Notes under the pieces: generated by a model
The model's input: only the letters and a program-made list of their open reading frames with translations
Database searches by the model: none
Told to the model about the DNA's origin: nothing
Shown: piece by piece, positions 2,798-36,679 of the stretch
Layout: each line of letters begins with the position of its first letter
Position numbering within the stretch: position 1 is the stretch's first letter
Virus record (IMG/VR): IMGVR_UViG_2671180892_000010
Strand: one strand, 5' to 3'
DNA from: a virus
Lineage: Duplodnaviria > Heunggongvirae > Uroviricota > Caudoviricetes
DNA length: 38,640 nt
Position numbers and translations under genes: made by a program

Positions 2798-3397
2798 TCA
2801 GAACTTATAACCGACACCCACGATGAAACCGTCAGTGCGCCAGTCGCCACTGCCGGAGCCTTCATAAGCAATATCAATGGCCACGGATTCGGTCGGGTTA
2901 AACTGCACGCCAGCTCCCCACGCCAGAGACGTGTTGCTGTGGCGACCGTCATCACTTCCGGTCAGCACGTCGTGCGTTTTCCCCTTGTTGTCAGTTACGC
3001 GGAGATAATCCCCGGAGAAAGTCGACACACGGCTGTAAGCCACACCCGCCATCGCATACGCGCTGAACCATTCATTCACGCGCACAGACGGCCCCACCAT
3101 CACGCTGAACCAGCGGTTACGCACGGAATCTTCATGCCAGCGGGTATCGCTGTAACGGGTAAGCTGGCGATTCTTGTCTCCTGCATAGCTGAATGACGTC
3201 ACCAGCCCCAGTGTGTCCGTAAACTCATAACGGTATTTCACGTTAATCCCGTTAAGATCATCGCTGCCGGGAACGTTCGTCGAGGCATGAAGATACCCCG
3301 CGCTCAGCGTGGACTGATGTTCAGACGCCCATGCAGGCGCACCGGATACGGCCAGACAAATGGCTGCGGACAAAATTGCTGCACAAACTTTACGCAT
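2798..3397 (-). CDS. lom: Lom-like outer membrane protein (Ail/Lom family)
   Basis: 199 aa with signal peptide [24 protein letters not shown] and C-terminal ...VGVGYKF beta-barrel end; sits between J and stf as in lambda. Confidence 0.9.
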
Positions 3398-3421
3398 AAT
3401 TACCTCTCGCTTTTCTGCAAT

Positions 3422-3445
3422 AAAAAAGGCGTCATTCCTGACGCC
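3422..3445 (-). terminator. intrinsic terminator between J and lom
   Basis: Hairpin GGCGTCA-TTCC-TGACGCC with an A-run on the plus strand, giving a U-run on the minus-strand transcript, 20 nt after the J stop. Confidence 0.6.
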
Positions 3446-3467
3446 CTTTATTGGGGTTATAAATATT

Positions 3468-6400
3468 TCAACGAATACTGATGCCGGAAGCGGCTTTTTT
3501 GGTCACAATCACCGTACAGTCGGTGATATTGCCTGCCCCCTGATTGCCTTTCTGGAAAATCTTAAACTCCAGAGTGACGCTACCACCACCACTAGGCATA
3601 TCAATAACTGCACTGTAACTACCGGGAATGGCCCCTTTAGTTTCTCTGGATGCGATTAATACGCCGTTTTTGCGAACTTCAAAACCATAACCCGTGTATC
3701 GCGTGCCTCCTGGGTTATTTCCGCTCCCCGGATCGTCATACGCTATACCGTTAAAAATAATGGGCGGAATAATAATCTGGCGGTCAAAGTTATGATCATC
3801 GCTGATGGTGACTGTAACCGTACCGTTTGGTGTTTCCGTGTTACCCCACGTACCGACTTTTTTCGGGAAGGCTTTTGATACAGCTTTAACGAAATCCCCT
3901 CTGACCTGGGTCGCCTCCAGCATGCCCTTAATCGTACAGTTCTGGTTAATCGTGACATTGTTGAGCGTTCCTGAGTTCGCATTCACACTACCACTGATAT
4001 CCGCATTTTTAGCGGTCAGCTTTCCGTCTGATGTCAGGGAAAATACCGGAGGACTGCCACCGCTGGTAATGGTGGGGGCTGTCAGGCGCTTCAGGAACAC
4101 GTCGTTCATGAATATCTGGTTGCCCTGCGCCACAAACATCGGCGTTTCATTCCCGTTTGCCTGGTCAATAAACGCGATACGGTTAGCGGCAACCAGAAAC
4201 TGGCTCAGCTTGCCTTCCTCCGTGTCCTCCATGCTGAGGCCAATACCCGCGACATAATGTTTGCCGTCTTTGGTCTGCTCAATTTTGACGCCCCACATGG
4301 CATTCCATTTATCGTTAGCGTCCTTCCACTCTTTCGAAAACTCATCCAGTCTGCTGGCGTTATCCTCCGTCAGATCAACTTTTTCCAGCAGCTCTTTACC
4401 GAGATGGGATTCGGTTATCTGGCCTTTGAAAAAATCCAGGTAACCTTCCGCATCATCGCTCGCCCGACCGACGGCTTCCACGAATGCCGATTTGCCAACG
4501 GTGTTCACACTGCGAACGTAAAAATAATAATCATGGCCCGGTTTGATATTGATACTGGCGGCTATCCAGTACAGCGCCGTGCCAAGATAGCGGGCTGTGG
4601 TTTCAACCTGCCTGATATCCGTAATCCGCGTTTCCGAGAACCAGAACTCAAACTGTACCGTCGGATCATAAACCGCAAGATGCGGCGTGGCAGTTATCTG
4701 AAAATAGCCCGGCGTCAGCTCAATCCGCGACGGCGCTGCCGGGGCGGCAATCCGGAACGATACCGACGCCGGATCGCCCTGCTGTCCCCACACATTTACC
4801 GCCCGGACCGTCAGCGTGTAACGCCCCAGCGCCAGTTGCCTGAAGCGGTATGTGGTTTCCGTCGTCCGGGCCGTGCTGACCAGCCGCTCACTGCCGTCGT
4901 CCGCTGTTACGGTCAGACGGAGCAGGAAGCTCACCCCCTTCACCACCTTCGGCGTGTCCCAGCGCGCCAGCACCTGATATTCCCCGCTGTCTGCGGTGAC
5001 TTCGGCAGTCAGGTGCTGCACCGCTGGCGGTGTGACACCATTCACCGTGCCGCTCTGGTCGCCGTCAAAGTGCGCCCCGTTATCCACGATGGCCTCTTTT
5101 TCCGGTACATGCTGCACGGCGGTGATGGCATACGTGCCGTCATCGTTCTCACGAATACTCACGCAGCGGAACAGGCGCTGGCGCAGCGTCGGCAGCTTCA
5201 GCCCCCATACGCTGTATCCGGCAACGCCGTCAGGAACACGGCTCACTTTCACCTTCACGCCGTCGGTGACGGACTGGACCTCCACGCTGACCGGACTCCC
5301 CTGCCCGTCAACCAGGCTTATCAGCGTGGTACCGGAAGATGGCAGCGTGATTTCACGGTCGAGCGTCAGCGTCCGGGTCTGGCTGTTCACCGCCAGCACG
5401 CGCCCGCCGGTGCTGATACCGGCATAGTCATCATCGCAGATTTCAATGACATCGCCCGGTACATGGCGAAGCCCTTCAGCACCCACGCTGAAGTCCACGG
5501 TCTGCGTTTCCAGCAGCTCCGTTTTAATCAGCCACAGCCCGGCTCGGTGTGCCTGCCCCCGGCTGGTACAGCCAAAGGCATCCATCTTCGTGACGTTACG
5601 ACCGTAACGGGCAATGGCCTGCGAGTCCTCCACAAGCTCTGTTGCCGTCTCCCAGCCGTTATCCGGGTCAATCCAGTTCACCTCAACGGCATTATGGCGG
5701 TCTTTCAGGGCGCTGAAGCTGTAGCGGAACGGCGCGCCATCATCCGGCATCACCACATTACTGCGGTTATAGGTCCACACCTTATCCGACGGTCGGTCCT
5801 GCACGAACGTCAGCGTCTGCCCGTTCCATACCGGCATACAGCGCATCGCCGAGCAGAAATCACTGAGCACATCNNNNNNNNNNNNNNNNNNNNNNNNNNN
5901 NCTGGCCGATGACATACAGCGCCCATTTGTCCACATCCGCCGCACCAAGACGTTTCCCCATGCCGTAGCGTGGATGGGTCAGCATATCCCACAGACACCA
6001 GGCCATGTTGTTGCTGTATGCCGGTTTAAACGTTCCGTCCCAGATACCGCTGTATTGCCGCGTCTGCGGGTTATAATTCGACGGCACCTGCAGAATACGC
6101 CCGCGAAGATGATAATTACGGCTCACCTGCTGGCTGCCGAACTGTTCCGAGTCCACCTGCACGCCGACCAGTGCCGTGTTCGGGTAGCACTGTTTCACAT
6201 CGATGATTTCGGTGTATGACGACCAGAGCGTTTTGTTCTGCAGCTGGTCTGTGGTGCTGTCCGGTGTCATCCTGCGCATCCGGATATTGAACGGTCGCGG
6301 CGGCAGGTTATCCACCACCACCGAGGCCAGATACTGCGACGTGGTTTTGCCCTTAATGGTGATGTCTTTTTCTGTCACCCAGCCACCGTTACGTTGTATC

Positions 6401-7526: not shown

Positions 7527-8176
7527 TTGTCGGTGTACCTCTCTCGTTTGCTCAGTTGTTCAGGAATATGGTGCAGCAGCTCGCCGTCACCACAGTAAAT
7601 GGCGGCATGATTCGGCACCGATGAACCAAAACAGCACAGCAGCACATCGCCCGGCTGCGCCGCTGACAACGGCACCTGATACAGCCCTGTGGCCTCCAGA
7701 TTATCCAGATAGAGATTCTGACCGTTACGCCACCAGTCATCCTCGCGATGAAAATCCGGCATCTCAATCCCCGCCAGATGGTAAGCATCCCGGAACAGCG
7801 TGTAACAGTCCGTCACCCCGTGCTCAAAGCGCCGCCCGGAAAGATGTGGCACACAGCGGAACTTGTGAATCGCCCCCCGGCAAACCAGCCACCACGGCAA
7901 ATCACTCTGCACCTGCAGCCGCCGGTCGGTCTCACTCAGCCAGGGCAGACCACCGGGGTGGCTGTGGACCAGCGCCACAATCTCACCCTGCATCTCTGCC
8001 CGCAGCCAGTCCTCCGGCGACATCCGGAAATACTCCTCCGGCTCACCGGAGATATTCACGCAGGGAAAATATCTTTCCCCCTCCGGTGTTCTCACCACGA
8101 AGCCGCACGACTCCGCTGGCGCACATCGCCGGGCGTGCGCCAGAATCGCTGATTCTGTCTCTGTCATGGGATTCAC
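7424..8176 (-). CDS. K: tail assembly protein K (NlpC/P60 and JAB/MPN-like)
   Basis: MNPMTETESAILAHARRCAPAESCGFVV...; start overlaps the L stop (ATGA); 3' end overlaps the start of I as in lambda. Confidence 0.85.
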   Translation of the reverse strand: MNPMTETESAILAHARRCAPAESCGFVVRTPEGERYFPCVNISGEPEEYFRMSPEDWLRAEMQGEIVALVHSHPGGLPWLSETDRRLQVQSDLPWWLVCRGAIHKFRCVPHLSGRRFEHGVTDCYTLFRDAYHLAGIEMPDFHREDDWWRNGQNLYLDNLEATGLYQVPLSAAQPGDVLLCCFGSSVPNHAAIYCGDGELLHHIPEQLSKRERYTDKWQRRTHSLWRHRAWHASAFTGIYNDLAAASTFE

Positions 8177-8871
8177 TGCGAAAGTTTGTTAATGGAAAGG
8201 AAGCCGCCAAAGTTGCCGACGTTATTGCGAAACTTACAGCCGCTCAGGCATTTGCTGCATTTATCCTTCGTGATATCGGAGGTCGGCTGGTCATATTCAT
8301 CCGCGACCGCCGGACCGTGATAACCGCACTCATCACCGCGATAGGTCCAGGTGCAGGTATTAGCCAGCATGATGCGCCCCGGAAAAACAGCGCCGTCCGT
8401 TTCCGTCGGCGTGGACAGTACAAAAGAGGCACTCACCGCGCTCAGTTCGCTGCACTGCTCGATGCGCCAGCGGCTGATCACCTCCTGCTCCGGATCGGCG
8501 TCACTGTTTCCGTTGACGAAGTTCACCGCATCCAGAAAACGGGCGTAAACCTTACGCCGGACCACCGTTCCTCCGACCAGACTCTGCAGGTCTTCCGCCA
8601 TCCCGGTGACCATGCCGTGCAGGTTAGAAACCGTCAGTGTCGGACGGGCAGCACTGCCTTTGCCGTTCAGTTCAAATCCCGTCCCCTGAATGGGATACGC
8701 CTGATACTGTCGCCTCTGCCAGGTGACCGGCTCACCTTTATCGTTCTGCTCATTACAGAAAAAATAACGTTCTCCACCGACCACTGTCAGATCGATTTCC
8801 CAGAGCACCACCTGGGCTGACTGATTGAGGCGTGTCGTCTCATGATGTGTTTCCTGTGGAATATCCTGCAT
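8173..8871 (-). CDS. L: minor tail protein L
   Basis: 232 aa, the same length as lambda L; MQDIPQETHHETTRLNQSAQVVLWEIDL... Confidence 0.9.
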   Translation of the reverse strand: MQDIPQETHHETTRLNQSAQVVLWEIDLTVVGGERYFFCNEQNDKGEPVTWQRRQYQAYPIQGTGFELNGKGSAARPTLTVSNLHGMVTGMAEDLQSLVGGTVVRRKVYARFLDAVNFVNGNSDADPEQEVISRWRIEQCSELSAVSASFVLSTPTETDGAVFPGRIMLANTCTWTYRGDECGYHGPAVADEYDQPTSDITKDKCSKCLSGCKFRNNVGNFGGFLSINKLSQ

Positions 8872-30136: not shown

Positions 30137-30630
30137 TAAGCCCCCACGTAATTCCCTGACAGATACCACTCTTCACCCGATGCAGCGCGCTTGCTGCTTT
30201 TCCGTAAGCACCGCTCACGACGCGCCAGAAAATTGTTTCGTTCTGGCTGGGAGTGGCTTTCACGGAATGCCGCCATCCACACGGTTGCAGCACGACGGTA
30301 TAAGCCCCTGAACTCCAGTTCTTCAGCCTGGCGGGTCAGGCACAAAATCACCCGTGGATCGTTAGTGCCGACATAGAAATTGCGCACAGGTCTGGTTTCT
30401 CGAACTGGTTGTGGTTCCGGTTCCTGCGCTCTCTCAGTCAGGCGCGGGAAATGTCTGCGTGTATCTCCTTCACAACGGTGAGCCACACGCCCACTCTGAC
30501 GTAACTTGCTTGCTGACTGCAGAACGCGCTGCCGTGAGTAACCTGCAAAAGCATCCGCAATGTCTCCGGAAGTACACCCCGGATGGGCTTCAATGAATTT
30601 CTGAACTTCATTCAAAAGACTCATGATCAC
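30136..30630 (-). CDS. PerC-family putative transcriptional regulator
   Basis: C-terminal ...AEELEFRGLYRRAATVWMAAF... resembles the PerC signature; 164 aa, the same size as K-12 YfdN as far as recalled. Confidence 0.45.
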   Translation of the reverse strand: MIMSLLNEVQKFIEAHPGCTSGDIADAFAGYSRQRVLQSASKLRQSGRVAHRCEGDTRRHFPRLTERAQEPEPQPVRETRPVRNFYVGTNDPRVILCLTRQAEELEFRGLYRRAATVWMAAFRESHSQPERNNFLARRERCLRKSSKRAASGEEWYLSGNYVGA

Positions 30631-31457
30631 CCCCTGAATCCTGCCGGGATCTGGCTGTAGTCCACGTTGTCGTAACTGGCTTTGAAGTACGGGTCCTCGC
30701 GTCTGGCTGCAGATACCGCAGGAACTTCCCAGGATTCTTCGAAATGACGATCCGGACCAAAGAACGTGACAGCCTGTTTCACAAATTGTGTGCCGCTGTT
30801 ACCCATCGCAGATACCCAGCCCGCGTAGCGTTTCACACCTTCCAGCATGGTTTCGGGTTTTACCCCCTCATTCAAACGAGCTTTCCAGGCTTTGAAGGCT
30901 GCAGATTTTGAATTGCCACCAGCACGTTTGGGGTATGCCAGCCATGCCTGCTCAAACTCCGGAGAGTATTCCGGTCGGTTTGAACGAACTCGCACGGACT
31001 CATCAGCAGATGCACCAACAGCTATTGGTTCATTGACTGGTTCTTTGACTGGTTCTTTGACTGGTTCAAAAGAGTGACTGGTTCTGGGTGAATCTCCTGC
31101 ACCACCCCCTGGTGCAACTCCTGCACTACCTGGTGAATTTGCTGCACCAGATAGTGAATTATTTGCACTACCCCCTAGTGAATCTCCTGCACCATCAAGA
31201 TGAAGGAGATAGATATTACTTGAGTTACCTTTTTCACCTTTCCGGGTGACTTTTTTTACCAGCCCGGAATCACAAAGGGCCGCAATATGATTCATCACAG
31301 AACGTTTGCTAATCTCGCACTGGTCAGCAATATGCTGGTAGCTGGGCCAGCACTCGCCCTGATCGCTGGCATTATCAGCCAGCTTGATCAGAACCAGTTT
31401 TCGCAATGGATTACCCACTCGAATTTTCATCGCTTTAACCATCAGCTCCATACTCAT
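30627..31457 (-). CDS. putative replication initiation protein (N-terminal winged helix, low-complexity linker, C-terminal domain)
   Basis: N-terminal ...LRKLVLIKLADNASDQGECWPSYQHIADQCEISKRSVMNHIAALCDSGLVKKV... helix-turn-helix; iteron-like DNA repeats lie inside the gene. Confidence 0.6.
   Translation of the reverse strand: MSMELMVKAMKIRVGNPLRKLVLIKLADNASDQGECWPSYQHIADQCEISKRSVMNHIAALCDSGLVKKVTRKGEKGNSSNIYLLHLDGAGDSLGGSANNSLSGAANSPGSAGVAPGGGAGDSPRTSHSFEPVKEPVKEPVNEPIAVGASADESVRVRSNRPEYSPEFEQAWLAYPKRAGGNSKSAAFKAWKARLNEGVKPETMLEGVKRYAGWVSAMGNSGTQFVKQAVTFFGPDRHFEESWEVPAVSAARREDPYFKASYDNVDYSQIPAGFRG
31030..31200. repeat. iteron-like tandem repeats inside the replication gene (candidate ori)
   Basis: Four 12-bp units (TTGACTGGTTC) from 31033 to 31084, then five ~21-bp units (GTGAAT...TGCAC...) to 31196, followed by an AT-rich stretch to about 31260. 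Confidence 0.5.
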
Positions 31458-31690
31458 GCTGCACCTCCGAGATGCTTCATGTTTTTTCCGGAGCGAAAGG
31501 CTATAAGCGGCATACTGACGCGGTAATTACGGCCCAGCGGTTCACAAATCACCTTCTGACATTCACGGTCAACCAGGCTGACACGTAGAACATGCCCTGC
31601 TGGCGTGGTGTACCACTGCCCAACTGTGGGTGTTGATATTTTTTTACGCTGAAATAAACGGTAAATGTTGAGGAGCAACGGATTAAGCAT
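31454..31690 (-). CDS. hypothetical protein, 78 aa
   Basis: ORF with start and stop overlapping both neighbours; no recognisable motifs. Confidence 0.4.
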   Translation of the reverse strand: MLNPLLLNIYRLFQRKKISTPTVGQWYTTPAGHVLRVSLVDRECQKVICEPLGRNYRVSMPLIAFRSGKNMKHLGGAA

Positions 31691-32519
31691 GACGATGCCC
31701 TCCGCTGATATTCAGGAGACGGTGAATATGAAAATTAGCCTTATCCGCCAGACGAATACGTTCAGCTTGCAAGTTAAGAAGGGTTTCTACCAGAACCTGA
31801 TGTGCCTGCGGATCCGAAAGAGTTACCTTGCGCAGAGCACGTAGTGCAGTTGTTACATAACTGAGTTTATGTAAGTCTTCATCATTCAGACGAGTGAGGG
31901 CTGGGACAGTAGCCATGATGGCAGCCTCCTTGATCGGTGAAATACTTCCACCACCGGAAACGCCAATTTCGCTGGTGGTGAACTGAACGGGGTTGGCGTA
32001 ACCGGTGATCAAGGAAACCGGCGCATCTTTCGATGCCCCCGCCCAGCCCACCATAACTTTGATGTGAGCAAATGCGGACGATAAAAAAGACGCTGGCGCG
32101 TCATATATCGCCTTGATCAATTCCAGGACGCCAATCCCGGCACCCGCTTTATAAGGTGCCTGAACAGTGTAACGTCCCGGAATGGCAGAATCAATGTGCT
32201 GGTGGTCCTTCACACTCAACAAAATCACGCCTGAATTTCCACAAAGGACTAAAGCACTCATGCGGGTAGTCTTTGCGAAGATAGATAACGCGCTGTGTTT
32301 CTGGCTCCCAACGAATAACATGAACATAAAGTCCTCTTCCGTCACGAAACCAGCGGTTAAGTTCCTGCACAACTCGCCCCCCACAGTCAGGTAAAGTTCT
32401 CTGTGGTTACTTACAGCCAGGTGATTTGGTAATCTGCATTCATGCCGTAACAACAGGTGTTCAGCGACGCTGACCACCAGCTGTTGCGACAAACGGTTAT
32501 TTGCCGTTAAACTGTTCAT
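31683..32519 (-). CDS. hypothetical protein, 278 aa, unknown function
   Basis: ATGA overlap with the upstream gene; Gly-rich segments (VLCGNSGVILLS, GAGIGVLELI, GVSGGGSIS) but no Walker A motif or other recognised catalytic motif. Confidence 0.5.
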   Translation of the reverse strand: MNSLTANNRLSQQLVVSVAEHLLLRHECRLPNHLAVSNHRELYLTVGGELCRNLTAGFVTEEDFMFMLFVGSQKHSALSIFAKTTRMSALVLCGNSGVILLSVKDHQHIDSAIPGRYTVQAPYKAGAGIGVLELIKAIYDAPASFLSSAFAHIKVMVGWAGASKDAPVSLITGYANPVQFTTSEIGVSGGGSISPIKEAAIMATVPALTRLNDEDLHKLSYVTTALRALRKVTLSDPQAHQVLVETLLNLQAERIRLADKANFHIHRLLNISGGHRHA

Positions 32520-33079
32520 GCGTTAGTTTCTCCACAGACACAAAACGCCACGACGCCCGGAGCTGCACACTCGCGGGCGTCACTCTTTTCTGGAGCGCAA
32601 AAGATTTTGTAGACCAGTGCTGCATGCTCCTGGAGCTTCGAAATTGACAGATACAACTCATCATTAATTGCTGTCTGCTCGTGTGGCTCCACTACCCCAT
32701 CTTCGATTGCCGAACGAATCTGCTTTGAGTAACTCCCGATCTGTTCGATGACTTCCAGCAGGCGCTGGTTTATATCGGCGTTCTCTACTTCCTCAATTTC
32801 AGGAAGCGATACAAACACCCCACCAGCAGACTGTGCGACAGCATCCGCAATGTAGTGAGTGCCAGCCGCGCGCTGTAAAATCATTGCCCATCCCAGCGGG
32901 AAAATCTGATCGCCATCTGCACGAAGGCGGTTGAATAAAGCGTTCTCTGTTACATCCAGCCACTCAGCAGCTTCAGCGTAACCCCCCGGCAACGCCGCGA
33001 TAGTTTTTCTGACAGCTTTCACGTACCACTCAGGCTGTTTTTCTACTTTCCAGTGATGCTTACCCACGGTTAGCCTCAT
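32516..33079 (-). CDS. hypothetical protein, 187 aa, in the cII slot (possible YdaT-like regulator)
   Basis: First gene after cro; assigned by position only, sequence not confidently matched to any family. Confidence 0.45.
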   Translation of the reverse strand: MRLTVGKHHWKVEKQPEWYVKAVRKTIAALPGGYAEAAEWLDVTENALFNRLRADGDQIFPLGWAMILQRAAGTHYIADAVAQSAGGVFVSLPEIEEVENADINQRLLEVIEQIGSYSKQIRSAIEDGVVEPHEQTAINDELYLSISKLQEHAALVYKIFCAPEKSDARECAAPGVVAFCVCGETNA

Positions 33080-33110
33080 CGTTCTGTGGTTAAAAATTGA
33101 AGGTGTTCTG

Positions 33111-33311
33111 TTAATCTTTCGGATAGATATCCGGTCTTAAGTCAGATTTCGTAATTGCACCTGACGTGCATTGCTCAAGTTTTTTAGCCAGCACAAAACT
33201 GGCTTTTTTATAACCATTGAAAACCAGCCGTAAGTAGCCTGGTGTTGAGCCAACTTTTCCGGCCAACTCGCCCTGCTGTTCTTTGGTTAAAGAGTCCCAA
33301 TACGCTTTCAT
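33111..33311 (-). CDS. cro: Cro-like repressor (YdaS/Cro family helix-turn-helix)
   Basis: MKAYWDSLTKEQQGELAGKVGSTPGYLRLVFNGYKKASFVLAKKLEQCTSGAITKSDL...; ATG at 33311 with a GGAGGT RBS; divergent from cI. The longer track ORF to 33614 overlaps the operators and the cI start. Confidence 0.7.
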   Translation of the reverse strand: MKAYWDSLTKEQQGELAGKVGSTPGYLRLVFNGYKKASFVLAKKLEQCTSGAITKSDLRPDIYPKD

Positions 33312-33401
33312 ACAATATGTACCTCCGGTATACATATTACATGATTGAGATGAACCTTCAAGATACTTGTACCTTATCGGTACAAAGGTTTTAATTTCTT
33401 T
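33312..33401. promoter_or_regulatory. cI-cro intergenic control region (candidate OR operators, PR and PRM)
   Basis: Inverted repeats AATATGTA-N9-TACATATT (33314..33338) and TTGTACC-N5-GGTACAA (33367..33385); minus-strand TTGAAG-N16-TAATAT candidate PR; cI ATG at 33402 has no Shine-Dalgarno sequence. Confidence 0.55.
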
Positions 33402-34076
33402 ATGAAAACAGTCCATGACATCCGGCGGTCTAACGCCAGAAAACTGAGAGATGGTGTTGGCGGGAATTCTTCCTTTGCCACCATGATTGATCGCGAGCCA
33501 ACCCAGACCAGCAGGTTTATGGGAGATGGTGCTACTAAAAATATCGGTGACAGCATGGCACGGCACATCGAAAAATGTTTCGACCTGCCTGTCGGATGGC
33601 TTGATCAAGAACACCAGACAACAAACATCACAAAAAAACCTGATGTTTCAATTACTAACAAACAAATAACGTTAGTCCCTGTCATATCATGGGTACAGGC
33701 CGGAGCATGGAAAGAAGTTGGCTATTCTGAGGTTGATTTGAGCACAGCAGAAACTTATCCCTGCCCTGTACCCTGTGGCGAAATGACTTATATCTTGCGG
33801 GTGATTGGTGATTCAATGATTGATGAGTACCGCCCGGGAGACATGATTTTTGTAGATCCTGAAGTCCCTGCCTGCCACGGTGACGACGTTATTGCATTGA
33901 TGCACGATACAGGCGAAACCACCTTTAAGCGGTTGATAGAAGATGGAACACAGCGTTACCTCAAAGCATTAAACCCAAACTGGCCTGAACCTTACATTAA
34001 GATCAACGGTAATTGCTCTATAATTGGCACAGTAATTTTCTCAGGAAAACCAAGAAGATACAAAATAAAGGCCTAA
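33402..34076 (+). CDS. cI: CI-like prophage repressor (helix-turn-helix plus S24 LexA-like peptidase domain)
   Basis: 224 aa; C-terminal ...LRVIGDSMIDEYRPGDMIFVDPEVP... autocleavage domain; divergent from cro. Confidence 0.88.
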   Translation: MKTVHDIRRSNARKLRDGVGGNSSFATMIDREPTQTSRFMGDGATKNIGDSMARHIEKCFDLPVGWLDQEHQTTNITKKPDVSITNKQITLVPVISWVQAGAWKEVGYSEVDLSTAETYPCPVPCGEMTYILRVIGDSMIDEYRPGDMIFVDPEVPACHGDDVIALMHDTGETTFKRLIEDGTQRYLKALNPNWPEPYIKINGNCSIIGTVIFSGKPRRYKIKA

Positions 34077-34147: not shown

Positions 34148-34577
34148 TAAAAGAAACATGTCACAGGCAAGATTAAACAAAATTTGGTTGTAACACGGCG
34201 TATGGCACATGCGTCGTTAGCGGTCTGGGGACGTTAAAGGGGACAATCCACTCCTTGCTCGGGCAAACAAACCAGGTAGCCGGAATGTGCAAGTCAATGA
34301 TGATGCTGATAAGACGCCTAACCAGCGTGGCGATCCGGTTTGACGCCTGGGAAGAGACCAGGGTGCAACGATGAGGGCATTTATGGAGCCGCGACAAAGT
34401 GTGGTGCCGTAACTGGCTAAGTGCTCTCAGCGTTGTGGTGAATGCGCAGGCTGATGCGCGAAAGACATTGCAGCTAATGCGGAAAAGAGCTGTTCGGCGG
34501 GGCAATTAAACGCCCGAGAGAGTCTGAAATAACCGCAAGCCGGAGATCAGCACCGGTCACCACAACAGCCACTGCTT

Positions 34578-34626
34578 TGGCGGTACCAGTTTGTACACTT
34601 GCTTCCGGCTGGTACCGCTCTTTTTA
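34578..34626 (+). terminator. candidate intrinsic terminator (tL-like) upstream of the early-left genes
   Basis: 10-bp stem GCGGTACCAG / CTGGTACCGC with a 19-nt loop, followed by TCTTTTT. Confidence 0.5.
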
Positions 34627-34762
34627 CAAAACAGAGAAGAGCATCACCGGACGACGGGCTCATAACCCAATCCATCCGGGCTGCTGCCACCGCAGGTGTT
34701 CTTCTCTGTTTTGTGGAGAAACCAACCGACCTTGCAGGGTCGATATGATGAGGAGCAGCAAA

Positions 34763-35125
34763 ATGGCTAGCGAACGCAGTACTGATGTGCAGGCATTTAT
34801 CGGGGAGCTGGACGGCGGCGTATTTGAAACCAAAATCGGCGCAGTTCTCAGTGAAGTCGCTTCAGGTGTGATGAACACGAAAACCAAAGGTAAGGTCTCA
34901 CTCAACCTGGAAATCGAACCATTTGATGAGAACCGTGTGAAAATCAAACACAAACTCTCATATGTTCGCCCGACTAACCGCGGGAAAATTTCCGAAGAAG
35001 ACACCACCGAAACGCCGATGTATGTCAATCGCGGTGGTCGCCTGACTATTCTGCAGGAAGACCAGGGACAATTACTGACTCTTGCCGGTGAACCTGACGG
35101 AAAACTCCGCGCAGCAGGTCATTAA
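34763..35125 (+). CDS. hypothetical early protein (size and synteny consistent with YfdP)
   Basis: 120 aa from the ATG at 34763 (MASERSTDVQAFIGELDGGVF...), AGGAG RBS; the track ORF from 34577 is an in-frame extension through the terminator. Confidence 0.55.
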   Translation: MASERSTDVQAFIGELDGGVFETKIGAVLSEVASGVMNTKTKGKVSLNLEIEPFDENRVKIKHKLSYVRPTNRGKISEEDTTETPMYVNRGGRLTILQEDQGQLLTLAGEPDGKLRAAGH

Positions 35126-35190
35126 TACCGTTCTTAATTAACCGATTATTTATCTCATCACTGAATATCTTTATATAGTGAGGACTTATT

Positions 35191-36015
35191 ATGTCTCAGA
35201 ACTTAGACGCAACCGCAATTAATCAAATCCATGCCCTTATTTCTGCTCAGGGTGTTAATGAAATTATCAGTAAGATTGGTGCCGATGCTGTGGCATTGCC
35301 TGAGAATTTCCGCATTCATGATCTGGAAAAATTTAATTTAAATCGCTTCCGTTTCCGTGGTGCGCTTTCCACTGCCAGCATCGATGACTTTACCCGTTAT
35401 TCTAAAGATCTTGCAGATGAAGGCACCCGCTGCTTTATCGATGCCGATAATATGCGAGCAGTCAGTGTGCTTAACCTGGGTACTATTGATGAACCAGGTC
35501 ACGCAGATAACACCGCCACTCTCAAACTGAAAAAGACAGCACCGTTCTCTGCCCTGTTGTCTGTTAACGGCGAGCGTAACTCCCAGAAGTCACTGGCAGA
35601 ATGGATTGAAGACTGGGCCGACTACCTTGTGGGCTTTGATGCTAATGGTGACGCCATTCAGGCAACCAAAGCGGCTGCGGCGATCCGTAAAATCACAATT
35701 GAAGCGAACCAGACCGCTGATTTTGAAGACAATGACTTCAGCGGCAAACGCTCCCTGATGGAGTCTGTCGAAGCGAAGACCAAAGACATTATGCCAGTGG
35801 CATTTGAATTTAAATGCGTTCCGTTTGAAGGCCTGAAAGAACGTCCGTTTAAATTACGCCTCAGCATTATCACTGGCGATCGTCCTGTACTGGTTCTGCG
35901 CATTATTCAGCTGGAAGCGGTGCAGGAAGAAATGGCTAACGAATTTCGTGATCTGCTTGTTGAGAAATTTAAAGACAGCAAAGTAGAAACCTTTATTGGT
36001 ACTTTCACCGCCTGA
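35191..36015 (+). CDS. yfdQ: YfdQ-like protein (DUF2303)
   Basis: 274 aa, [21 protein letters not shown]...; length and neighbourhood match the CPS-53 yfdQ-yfdR-yfdS cluster. Confidence 0.7.
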
Positions 36016-36142
36016 TTTCATTACTGCAAATGCCCCTGCGGGGGCATTTATGGAAACATAATTTACTCAATAATCGCCGGATGGTGAGGGCTTCCTTTTA
36101 CCAGAATTCAGCGCGGTGCAGCGCATATACGTGGAGAACAAA

Positions 36143-36679
36143 ATGTCATTTATTAAAACTTTTTCCGGGAAGCATTTTTATTATGACAAGATAAATAAAG
36201 ACAACATCGTTATTAACGATATCGCGGTTTCCCTTTCAAATATCTGTCGCTTTGCAGGACATCTTTCACACTTCTACAGCGTCGCCCAACATGCGGTGCT
36301 TTGCAGCCAACTGGTACCGCAGGAATTTGCTTTTGAAGCGTTAATGCATGATGCAACAGAAGCGTATTGCCAGGATATTCCCGCTCCACTGAAACGCCTT
36401 CTTCCTGACTATAAACGGATGGAAGAAAAAATAGACGCCGTAATCCGTGAGAAATACGGGTTACCCCCGGTTATGAGCACGCCCGTGAAATATGCCGATC
36501 TCATCATGCTGGCAACTGAACGCCGCGATCTCGGGCTTGATGATGGCTCTTTCTGGCCTGTACTGGAAGGTATCCCGGCAACAGATATGTTCAAAGTTAT
36601 TCCACTGGCACCGGGCCATGCCTATGGGATGTTTATGGAACGTTTTAACGAGTTATCGGAGTTACGCAAATGCGCATGA
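36143..36679 (+). CDS. yfdR: HD-domain 5'-deoxynucleotidase YfdR-like
   Basis: 178 aa from MSFIKTF...; HD motif region ...AGHLSHFYSVAQHAVLCSQ... ...LMHDATEAYCQDIPAPLK... Confidence 0.75.
   Translation: MSFIKTFSGKHFYYDKINKDNIVINDIAVSLSNICRFAGHLSHFYSVAQHAVLCSQLVPQEFAFEALMHDATEAYCQDIPAPLKRLLPDYKRMEEKIDAVIREKYGLPPVMSTPVKYADLIMLATERRDLGLDDGSFWPVLEGIPATDMFKVIPLAPGHAYGMFMERFNELSELRKCA

Follow-up and report, generated by a model that had tools for sequence, protein, structure and literature searches.

The immunity region of P4 consists of the PLE promoter, seqA, the cI RNA (seqB), and seqC, followed by the alpha replication operon. In the immI region of P1 and P7 (c4, icd, ant), the a' and b' segments of the C4 RNA pair with a2 and b2 over the ribosome-binding site of a small ORF with translational coupling to downstream genes; C4, Icd, and Ant of P1 have been described (PMC8201110). 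Another locus of this kind is isrK-orf45-anrP of Gifsy-1, in which isrK, which has a promoter of its own and a terminator that is leaky, is followed by the C4-like processed RNA STnc1160, which overlaps the short ORF orf45, and then by a cargo gene. The nucleotides of orf45 are conserved, whereas its amino acids are variable (Hershko-Shalev 2016, PMC4825925), and the authors of that study likened the locus to the control of replication genes in P4. In Shigella dysenteriae, orf45 is fused to the cargo, giving a protein of 287 aa (PMC4825925).

Here we describe a locus in a 38,640-nt stretch of viral DNA (IMG/VR record IMGVR_UViG_2671180892_000010, Caudoviricetes), hereafter the window. The locus was 100% identical to Escherichia coli C7 and 98% identical to orf36-38 of phage SfV, and the element that carries it is an SfV-like lambdoid prophage of E. 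coli. The gene order on the minus strand is cro, ymfL, DUF4222, RNA switch, ORF77, ORF78, and replication gene (Table 1). We consider it likely, with a probability of about 0.75, that this interval makes up the proximal portion of the rightward early operon, composed of a CII-type gene, a DUF4222 gene, an RNA switch of the P4/P1 type, ORF77, and ORF78. All of these parts are known kinds of element, although they are mis-annotated.

Gene order and the CII-type gene

The original prediction had placed three translationally coupled genes of unknown function, with 187, 278, and 78 codons, between cro and the replication gene, where lambda has no comparable module. The three ORFs were present, as were the flanking Cro/YdaS-like gene upstream and the HTH_36/DnaD_N replication gene downstream. 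The overlaps were also as described: an ATGA joins ORF187 and ORF278 (32516-32519), and ORF278, with its 3' part ORF77, shares the 8-nt ATGCTTAA with ORF78 (31683-31690). ORF78 in turn overlaps the replication gene by 4 nt, again as an ATGA (31454-31457). However, the count of three genes fell short, since ORF278 contains a 59-aa DUF4222 gene and two RNA genes of Rfam families on the same strand. Its codons 1-49 appear to be coding, codons 50-109 lie over the DUF4222 gene, and codons ~110-201 form a Gly-rich Ash stretch over the RNA genes. In place of the 278-aa gene, the NCBI PGAP annotation gives DUF4222 and a 181-aa "ash family protein."

Table 1. Features of the early operon, with coordinates in the window.
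Feature	Coordinates	Strand	Remarks
cro-like gene (ymfT, YdaS family)	33111..33311	-	Opens the rightward early operon; upstream flank
ymfL, CII-like regulator (phage 186 CP76 family), 187 aa	32516..33079	-	Pfam, NCBIfam, and PHROG profiles
ORF278, composite frame (SfV orf37, "ash family protein")	31683..32519	-	Not a single protein gene
ORF278 codons 1-49	32373..32519	-	ATG overlaps ymfL stop (ATGA); position of the e14 ymfM N-terminus
DUF4222 gene, 59 aa, GTG start	32191..32370	-	Out of frame inside ORF278; Pfam, PHROG, and selection
Candidate cassette promoter	32166..32194	-	-35 TTGATT 32189-32194; 17-nt spacer; -10 TACACT 32166-32171
isrK-like RNA (P4 seqA counterpart)	32083..32159	-	RF01394; boxes a1 32128-32134, b1 32111-32118
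C4/CI-type antisense RNA	31971..32058	-	RF01695; loop b' 32007-32014, single-stranded a' 31993-31999
ORF77 leader	31925..31966	-	a2 31960-31966; b2 31925-31935, includes Shine-Dalgarno GGAGG
ORF77, 77 aa, helical hairpin, cargo of the RNA switch	31683..31916	-	Real gene at the ORF278 3' end
ORF78 (SfV orf38), 78 aa	31454..31690	-	N-terminal helix and five-stranded SH3/Tudor/KOW-like barrel
Replication initiator	30627..31457	-	Winged-helix N-terminus and DnaD-like C-terminus; next in the translationally coupled chain

ORF187, which had been regarded as not assignable to CII, matched Pfam PF06892 Phage_CP76 (8.5e-15, 55.3 bits, cut-off 26), NCBIfam NF041471 YmfL (169 bits, cut-off 90), and phrog_101 "CII-like transcriptional activator" (5e-73), and was 88% identical to YmfL of e14. 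The gene is named ymfL in E. coli C7, where the PGAP start corresponds to 33067. The likeness to phage 186 CII and e14 YmfL lies in the passing of both curated profiles and in the cII position directly after cro. Confident CII-type profile matches were found, in other words, where none had been seen before, and by sequence ORF187 falls within the CII family of phage 186. The lambda Phage_CII and YdaT profiles gave no match in ORF187, ORF278, or ORF78 at E ≤ 0.1, and sequence searches of ORF187 and ORF278 against solved structures gave nothing significant. To our knowledge, activity has been demonstrated for no YmfL protein. The protein would most likely be a CII-type activator of the lysogeny promoter; overexpressed YmfL did not cause filamentation (bioRxiv 10.1101/2020.11.19.390815).

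The product of the replication gene matched Pfam HTH_36 and DnaD_N and phrog_270 "replication initiation protein" (1.7e-88). Its C-terminal half matched phrog_1701 "DnaD-like helicase loader" (4.7e-33) and also a "primosomal protein" PHROG family. The earlier statement that the operon has no recognizable helicase loader is accurate for ORF187, ORF278, and ORF78, in which no match to a helicase loader (lambda P or DnaC-like) was found in Pfam, PHROGs, or NCBIfam, but not for the replication protein. As noted before, the translation of ORF278 is Gly-rich in places and lacks a Walker A motif; with this motif absent and no profile matches of this kind, the possibility that ORF278 is a helicase loader or ATPase was rejected.

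The RNA cassette and its proposed action

The isrK-like RNA gave a full-length match to Rfam RF01394 (64.2 bits, gathering score 50), with an intrinsic terminator at its end (32083-32102). It lies directly upstream of the C4 RNA, separated by a gap of 24 nt, and the C4 RNA matched RF01695 with 82.3 bits (gathering score 45) over model positions 1-87 of 87. The minimum free energy fold of the C4 RNA agreed with the Rfam model, in which a long closing stem encloses two hairpins. Across 28 distinct homologues, compensatory changes were found in 17 of the 27 stem pairs, and pairing was broken in 1 of 756 cells. Both RNA families scored above the gathering scores in the window, ST64B, Stx1_14040, P4-like islands, and P4. 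A scan of genome contigs with the 181-aa Ash protein gave five loci, in P4-like islands of other genera, which served as outgroups but were of no use in testing the frame. The module had been called unrecognized; because isrK and C4 are known Rfam families scoring above their gathering scores, it is instead of a recognized kind, that of P4 cI, P1 c4, and Gifsy-1 IsrK.

A candidate promoter, which agrees with the consensus at 8 of 12 bases, precedes the start of the isrK match by 6 nt. A generic sigma-70 promoter scan of 31300-33450 reported no site at its threshold. The -10 pattern TAnnnT was invariant at the same distance in the window, P4, ST64B, Stx1_14040, and a P4-like island, and it is this conservation that marks the element as a candidate.

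In the C4 RNA, box b' (CCUUGAUC) and box a' (ACGCCAA) are complementary to b1 and a1 in isrK and also to b2 and a2 in the ORF77 leader. The sequence AAGGAGG is located 8 nt upstream of the ORF77 ATG, and the GGAGGCTGCC-N3-ATG motif was kept in 110 viral loci. Among 88 unique cassettes, 37 different b2 boxes were present, and pairing at 12 or more of 14 positions was observed in 40 of 88 self comparisons vs 28 of 834 non-self comparisons. Covariation between loop and target was seen in four lineages.

The cassette shares with P4 the same two Rfam families in the same order, on the same strand, and with similar spacing; an antisense RNA complementary to one upstream and one downstream site; a position upstream of replication genes; and an ORF over the RNA that is matched by the Ash profile. 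Unlike in P4, the cassette is part of the early pR operon in a lambdoid phage with a CI protein repressor, after a CII-like gene; the first downstream gene encodes a 77-aa helical protein, and the replication protein is O/DnaD-like rather than the alpha primase. The likeness to P1 and P7 lies in the C4-family RNA, in the pairing of a' and b' with a2 and b2 over the ribosome-binding site of a small, translationally coupled ORF, and in lineage-specific boxes, which are expected to confer different immunity specificities. The downstream genes differ, being ORF77, ORF78, and the replication gene rather than icd and ant, as judged for ORF77 by profile searches. The arrangement of isrK, C4-like RNA, overlying ORF, and cargo gene corresponds to that of Gifsy-1. 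There, orf45 stops at the start codon of anrP (AUGA), whereas the equivalent here (from M156) shares its frame with the cargo, a fusion resembling that of S. dysenteriae. The cargo is an antirepressor-like protein in Gifsy-1, a 77-aa hairpin here, and a Rha protein in ST64B and Stx1_14040.

By analogy with P4, P1, and Gifsy-1, ORF77, ORF78, and the replication genes are likely to be gated by RNA; the promoter, the RNA processing, and the repression in this phage are all inferred from those systems. The C4 RNA would be processed out of transcripts from the cassette promoter and from pR. It would then pair with the ORF77 leader, so that ribosome binding would be blocked and/or transcription terminated prematurely. 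This pairing would gate ORF77, and its effect would reach ORF78 and the replication genes through polarity and translational coupling. Transcripts of isrK would act as decoy copies of the target that counteract C4, and divergent loop sequences would set the immunity specificities. The measured effect of Gifsy-1 IsrK in trans was activation, not repression (PMC4825925), so that control here could run in a direction other than that in P1 and P4.

Some translation through the RNA region may occur and matter, because the frame is mostly open, starts at a stop codon, and includes 49 codons that look selected. In these codons, dN/dS was 0.27 against ST64B in the ORF278 frame, the other two frames contained four to six stops, and the e14-type counterpart gave 0.26 against a Klebsiella phage. 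These values suggest that codons 1-49, coupled to ymfL, are probably translated. It is conceivable, though rather unlikely, that the whole frame is kept open and translated as a means of escaping RNA immunity in cis. Ribosomes would restart at the ATGA after ymfL and continue into ORF77 by way of the overprinted DUF4222 gene, the terminator of isrK, and the C4 RNA, and the pR transcripts formed after induction would thereby have their terminator and antisense RNA unfolded. The low dN/dS of the unique 5' part fits this scheme, as does the position of the start, invariably next to the stop codon of the preceding gene, and no stop occurs across DUF4222 in five lineages (P ~0.03-0.05 each by synonymous shuffling). 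However, the frame is closed in one lineage (L131), and many cassettes have no such frame.

The reading frame over the RNA genes

Residues 117-210 of ORF278 matched Pfam PF10554 Phage_ASH with 67.8 bits, above the gathering score (cut-off 26), and hundreds of 278-aa database entries are named "ash family protein." Taken at face value, ORF278 or its 181-aa form would be a genuine antirepressor or transcriptional regulator of the Ash/Bro network, with the RNA embedded in a dual-coding stretch. We regard this as distinctly unlikely. Variability at the three codon positions of the Ash stretch was 0.908/0.908/0.917, with no 3-nt periodicity and no excess at the third position, whereas the real cargo ORFs used as controls gave 0.65/0.68/0.99 and 0.12/0.13/0.39. 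AlphaFold2, run with a 64-sequence alignment, predicted no fold for residues 102-200 (pLDDT < 50, no secondary structure). The conserved columns are those of the promoter, stem, terminator, and Shine-Dalgarno sequence, and the variable columns are the RNA specificity boxes; in 115 near-identical 278-aa homologues, divergence reached 0.19-0.70 in these boxes vs 0.01 in the flanks.

The frame upstream of the cargo ATG was open for at least 114 codons in ~66 of the 88 unique cassettes, a figure that is biased by RNA conservation and by the preference of gene callers for the longest ORF. In ~11 of 88 lineages it was closed shortly before the cargo ATG, as it was over isrK in P4. In-frame fusion to a Rha domain was found in 21 of 64 Ash-containing representative proteins, which could speak for a protein; in two of these, from ST64B and Stx1_14040, the fusion partner is simply the Rha cargo downstream of the cassette. 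Gifsy-1 ORF45, over the C4-like RNA, is translated and required for coupling (PMC4825925). By contrast, immunity of P4 is exerted by an RNA (PMC4825925), and what the Ash profile matches in that phage is the obsolete "cI protein" ORF overlying the CI RNA. These results indicate that the Pfam Ash "domain" is largely the translation of a promoter-like element and the isrK and C4 RNA genes.

The ORF77 part of ORF278 behaved as a protein gene. Residues 211-270 were predicted by AlphaFold2 with pLDDT ~90, this part was retained in protein-level homologues at 33-71% identity, and in lineages in which the upstream frame is closed the cargo ORF begins at the ORF77 ATG. ORF77 had no Pfam or NCBIfam match, and PHROGs gave only phrog_4908, of unknown function. 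In Foldseek searches of PDB, the ORF77 fold had no significant structural match, and the ORF278 model matched just generic helical hairpins (E > 0.6).

ORF78 is usually linked with the RNA cassette and the replication gene, and a distant relationship to DUF4222 is possible. BLASTP aligned the two with 24% identity (E 0.017), and the e14 DUF4222 protein matched phrog_1153, the family of ORF78, at 7e-7. ORF78 itself did not match Pfam DUF4222 (PF13973) even at E ≤ 10, and hhalign of the two families, both with low-diversity alignments, gave E 0.075 and a probability below 1%.

The embedded DUF4222 gene and the YmfM frame

The 59-aa ORF matched Pfam PF13973 DUF4222 (9.5e-14, 51.1 bits, cut-off 27) and phrog_1343 (1.1e-36), with amino acid identities of 63-90% in e14, SfII, ST64B, Stx1_14040, and a Klebsiella phage. 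Its frame gave dN/dS values of 0.03-0.16, vs 1.3-7 in the overlapping ORF278 frame. By these values, the DUF4222 gene is under strong purifying selection. A scan of viral contigs with the DUF4222 protein gave 80 loci, which were uninformative for selection tests because all were 97-98% identical.

This overlap bears on the relation of ORF278 to YmfM of e14, the SOS-inducible cell-division inhibitor SfiC, which makes cells filamentous when expressed (bioRxiv 10.1101/2020.11.19.390815). The 5' part of ORF278 has the same position and the same ATGA coupling to ymfL as e14 ymfM, and BLASTP (32% identity, E 7e-8) and phrog_1170, the YmfM family (1.5e-8), connect the two. If this part encoded a counterpart of YmfM, the main function of the module would be division arrest, a reading that we hold with low confidence and consider quite improbable. 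The similarity is confined to the DUF4222 overlap, where the YmfM frame has the high dN/dS given above; the unique N-terminal parts share 24% identity, which is no higher than in the non-coding frames, and the frame here runs on into the RNA genes without stopping. Because DUF4222 is conserved in the overlapping frame, the similarity between YmfM and ORF278 can be explained as a by-product. What e14 and the window have in common is a frame from the ymfL stop codon over a well-conserved 59-aa DUF4222 gene. In e14-type phages, this frame ends inside DUF4222, which abuts the replication gene, whereas in the window the two are separated by an insertion of the RNA cassette, ORF77, and ORF78.

It is highly improbable that, as originally proposed, the locus encodes three coupled proteins of possibly new function forming an unrecognized lysogeny, replication-accessory, or host-interference module: the ORFs and overlaps are real, and ORF77, ORF78, and the DUF4222 protein are without known function, but ORF187 belongs to the CII family, a fourth gene was overlooked, and known RNA families make up most of ORF278, which refutes the proposal for ORF187 and ORF278. 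"Unknown function" applies only to the ORF77, ORF78, and DUF4222 proteins, not to ORF187 or the bulk of ORF278. The expectation that the module is regulatory and connected with the lysogeny decision, immunity, and replication genes was borne out, but the nature of its parts was misjudged.

The main value of these results is the correction of annotation (Ash; YmfM/DUF4222). The label "ash family protein," carried by thousands of RefSeq entries, and PF10554 largely represent a translated promoter and two small RNA genes. PF10554 is used as a marker of P4 epsilon, yet epsilon is not matched by PF10554 and matches a family other than Ash. A conserved DUF4222 gene is hidden here and under e14 ymfM, which bears on the identity of the SfiC division inhibitor. 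If the long frame is translated through the RNA genes, filamentation in e14 could be caused either by YmfM or by the embedded DUF4222 protein.

For the phages themselves, the CI/Cro switch appears to be supplemented by an antisense-RNA lock in SfV-like, ST64B-like, and several Stx-converting lambdoid phages. This lock is of the P4/P1 type, lies directly upstream of the replication genes, and has many interchangeable specificities. Induction and superinfection immunity could be influenced by it, as could toxin production in the Stx phages.

Locus identity and operon layout

The region matched a prophage of E. coli C7 at 100% identity and Shigella phage SfV at 98%; SfV orf36, orf37 (GenBank note "immunity region"), and orf38 correspond to the three ORFs. 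The ORFs of 187, 278, and 78 aa were present as originally predicted, and their ATGA, 8-nt, and ATGA overlaps were confirmed (see the table). A CI gene faces a Cro/YdaS-like gene, which heads a minus-strand operon continuing with the three ORFs, a replication gene (HTH_36/DnaD_N), and then PerC-like, Dam, LexA-like, and RusA genes. Across cI from this operon, homologues of the CPS-53/KpLE1 genes yfdP, yfdQ, and yfdR are present (named from the C7 annotation; yfdR encodes a 5'-deoxynucleotidase). The set of ORFs is real, yet known families account for most of it.

Coordinates of features in the window and in the comparison loci e14 and P4
Feature	Position	Strand	Remarks
ORF187 (ymfL)	32516-33079	-	
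ORF278 (long frame)	31683-32519	-	
DUF4222 ORF, 59 aa	32191-32370	-	GTG start; Pfam DUF4222, 9.5e-14
isrK	32159-32083	-	ORF278 strand; Rfam, 64.2 bits, above gathering score
C4 antisense RNA	32058-31971	-	ORF278 strand; Rfam, 82.3 bits, above gathering score
ORF77	31683-31916	-	helical hairpin; family, unnamed PHROG only
ORF78	31454-31690	-	
Replication protein	30627-31457	-	
CI gene	33402-34076	+	LexA/S24-type; faces Cro/YdaS-like gene
yfdP, yfdQ, yfdR homologues	34577-36679	+	
Terminator-like hairpin in ymfL	32755-32768	+	antisense; consensus match only
e14 ymfM	3323-3661		annotated "cell division inhibitor"
e14 DUF4222 ORF, 59 aa	3502-3681		TTG start; overlaps ymfM; strong Shine-Dalgarno AAGGAG
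P4 "cI gene product" ORF	8168-8692		NC_001609; obsolete; overlies CI RNA
P4 epsilon	7888-8175		PF25738

ORF187, which occupies the cII position, had been considered unassignable to CII. This view did not hold, since the protein scored above the curated thresholds of Pfam Phage_CP76 (phage 186 CII) and NCBIfam YmfL and matched the PHROG "CII-like transcriptional activator." Its identity to YmfL of the E. coli K-12 prophage e14 was 88%. YmfL overexpression causes no filamentation (bioRxiv 10.1101/2020.11.19.390815). A hairpin of terminator type (CCAGCAGGCGCTGG, then TTTATAT) lies antisense within ymfL and is reminiscent of the OOP RNA antisense to lambda cII. The replication protein has a winged-helix N-terminus (HTH_36/DnaD_N), and its C-terminal region matched the PHROG families "DnaD-like helicase loader" and "primosomal protein." The loader function overlooked in the first reading may reside in this protein.

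The DUF4222 gene within ORF278 and e14 ymfM

Describing the 278-aa ORF as a simple gene proved incomplete, as it contains a DUF4222 gene and RNA genes. Inside it, PGAP calls a 181-aa "ash family protein" and, in a different frame, a "DUF4222 domain-containing protein" of 59 aa. When the window was compared with ST64B, Stx1_14040, e14, SfII, and a Klebsiella phage, dN/dS was 0.03-0.16 in the DUF4222 frame, with synonymous sites close to saturation, versus 1.3-7 in the ORF278 frame over the same bases. These results indicate that DUF4222 is the constrained gene in the overlap. In e14, strong purifying selection was likewise observed on the DUF4222 ORF, but not on the ymfM frame across the overlap. 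Since a plasmid-cloned ymfM ORF would include 53 of the 59 DUF4222 codons, the question of whether YmfM or DUF4222 is the product behind SfiC filamentation may merit a control. In e14-type phages, which lack the RNA cassette, DUF4222 directly adjoins the replication gene.

The long ORF278 frame may still be translated; on a more novel but less probable reading, ribosomes would restart at the ymfL stop codon and read through into ORF77. In all lineages examined, the frame's start coincided with the upstream stop codon; the first 49 codons had a dN/dS of ~0.27 (0.26 in the e14-type counterpart), and the frame was stop-free across DUF4222 in five lineages, for which synonymous shuffling gave a chance of 0.025-0.05 per lineage. 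These observations support read-through without establishing it. One IMG/VR contig (L131) argues against selection for an open frame, because upstream of its cassette a stop closes the long frame within the 3' end of DUF4222.

RNA genes in the Ash stretch

Both Rfam matches, isrK and C4, overlie the Pfam Phage_ASH match at ORF278 residues 117-210, and the pair was also found in ST64B, Stx1_14040, three P4-like islands, and P4 itself. A -10 hexamer 6-7 nt upstream of the isrK start was conserved in five divergent loci including P4, and isrK ends in an intrinsic terminator. Among 28 distinct C4 sequences, 17 of the 27 stem pairs showed compensatory changes, with one broken cell. Codon periodicity was absent from the Ash stretch in 87 unique cassettes (variability of 0.908, 0.908, and 0.917 at the three positions), whereas the downstream cargo ORFs showed the expected third-position excess. 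With a 64-sequence alignment, AlphaFold2 gave no structure for ORF278 residues 1-50 and 102-200 and a confident helical hairpin only at residues 211-270. The Ash stretch is thus RNA and not protein-like, in agreement with a Gifsy-1 ORF over a C4-like RNA, in which nucleotides are conserved and amino acids vary (PMC4825925). The Ash domain has no assigned function (PMC8951638). PF10554 has served as an epsilon/"Ash" marker in a survey of P4-like satellites (PMC8628076). In P4, this profile matched the cI ORF, and epsilon matched a different family; therefore, the marker in fact picks up the CI-RNA locus, not epsilon.

The C4 loop (b') and adjacent single strand (a') were complementary to boxes a1 and b1 in isrK and to a2 and b2 in the downstream leader, where b2 contains GGAGG 8 nt before an ATG; b' occupies 32007-32014 and b2 31925-31935. 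The boxes differed among the window, ST64B, Stx1_14040, and a P4-like island, with complementarity kept within each. Searching more widely for the conserved DNA pattern GGAGGCTGCC-N3-ATGGCTAC yielded 110 viral loci; these comprised 88 unique cassettes, in which b2 took 37 different forms, and self pairing was clearly above non-self pairing across the unique cassettes. In 115 full-length homologues (89-99% identical), nearly all differences fell in the RNA specificity boxes, with a divergence of 0.19-0.70 versus 0.01 in the flanks. This is the pattern expected from swapped RNA immunity specificities, and the clustering looks like such an exchange. Over window positions 31925-32134, prophages otherwise 99% identical differ in b1, the gap, the C4 loops, and the leader. 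Single IMG/VR contigs can carry several cassettes (two in L111, three in L207) with different specificity boxes and cargo sizes.

In ~11 of 88 cassettes, the frame is closed by a stop a few codons before the cargo ATG, which is therefore a real start. The cargo ranges from 62 to 229 aa and is a Rha-family protein in ST64B and Stx1_14040. ORF77, the cargo here, gave no significant fold match and no family beyond the unnamed PHROG; it is retained in homologues at 33-71% identity. In 76 unique contexts, the cassette had DUF4222 upstream in 32, YmfL upstream in 25, an ORF78 homologue downstream in 44, and the replication gene downstream in 43.

Predicted control of the replication genes

With this cassette, the C4/CI/IsrK kind gains a new, uncharacterised member, located in a lambdoid early operon. 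A chain of start and stop codons that overlap links ORF77 to the replication gene and further. From P4, P1/P7, and Gifsy-1, we infer how the observed anatomy, complementarity, covariation, and codon-overlap chain might operate. C4 would be processed out of cassette and pR transcripts and would pair with a2/b2, blocking the ORF77 ribosome-binding site and/or favoring termination, and this pairing would gate ORF77, ORF78, and the replication genes. Transcripts of isrK bearing a1/b1 could act as a decoy or an activator. The net effect may be either to repress in the lysogen, like the P1 and P4 systems, or to activate conditionally, the effect measured for IsrK. The main value of these results lies in correcting the annotation of Ash and of DUF4222 under ORF278 and under ymfM; the cassette also suggests that replication genes of SfV-like and Stx phages may be controlled at the RNA level.
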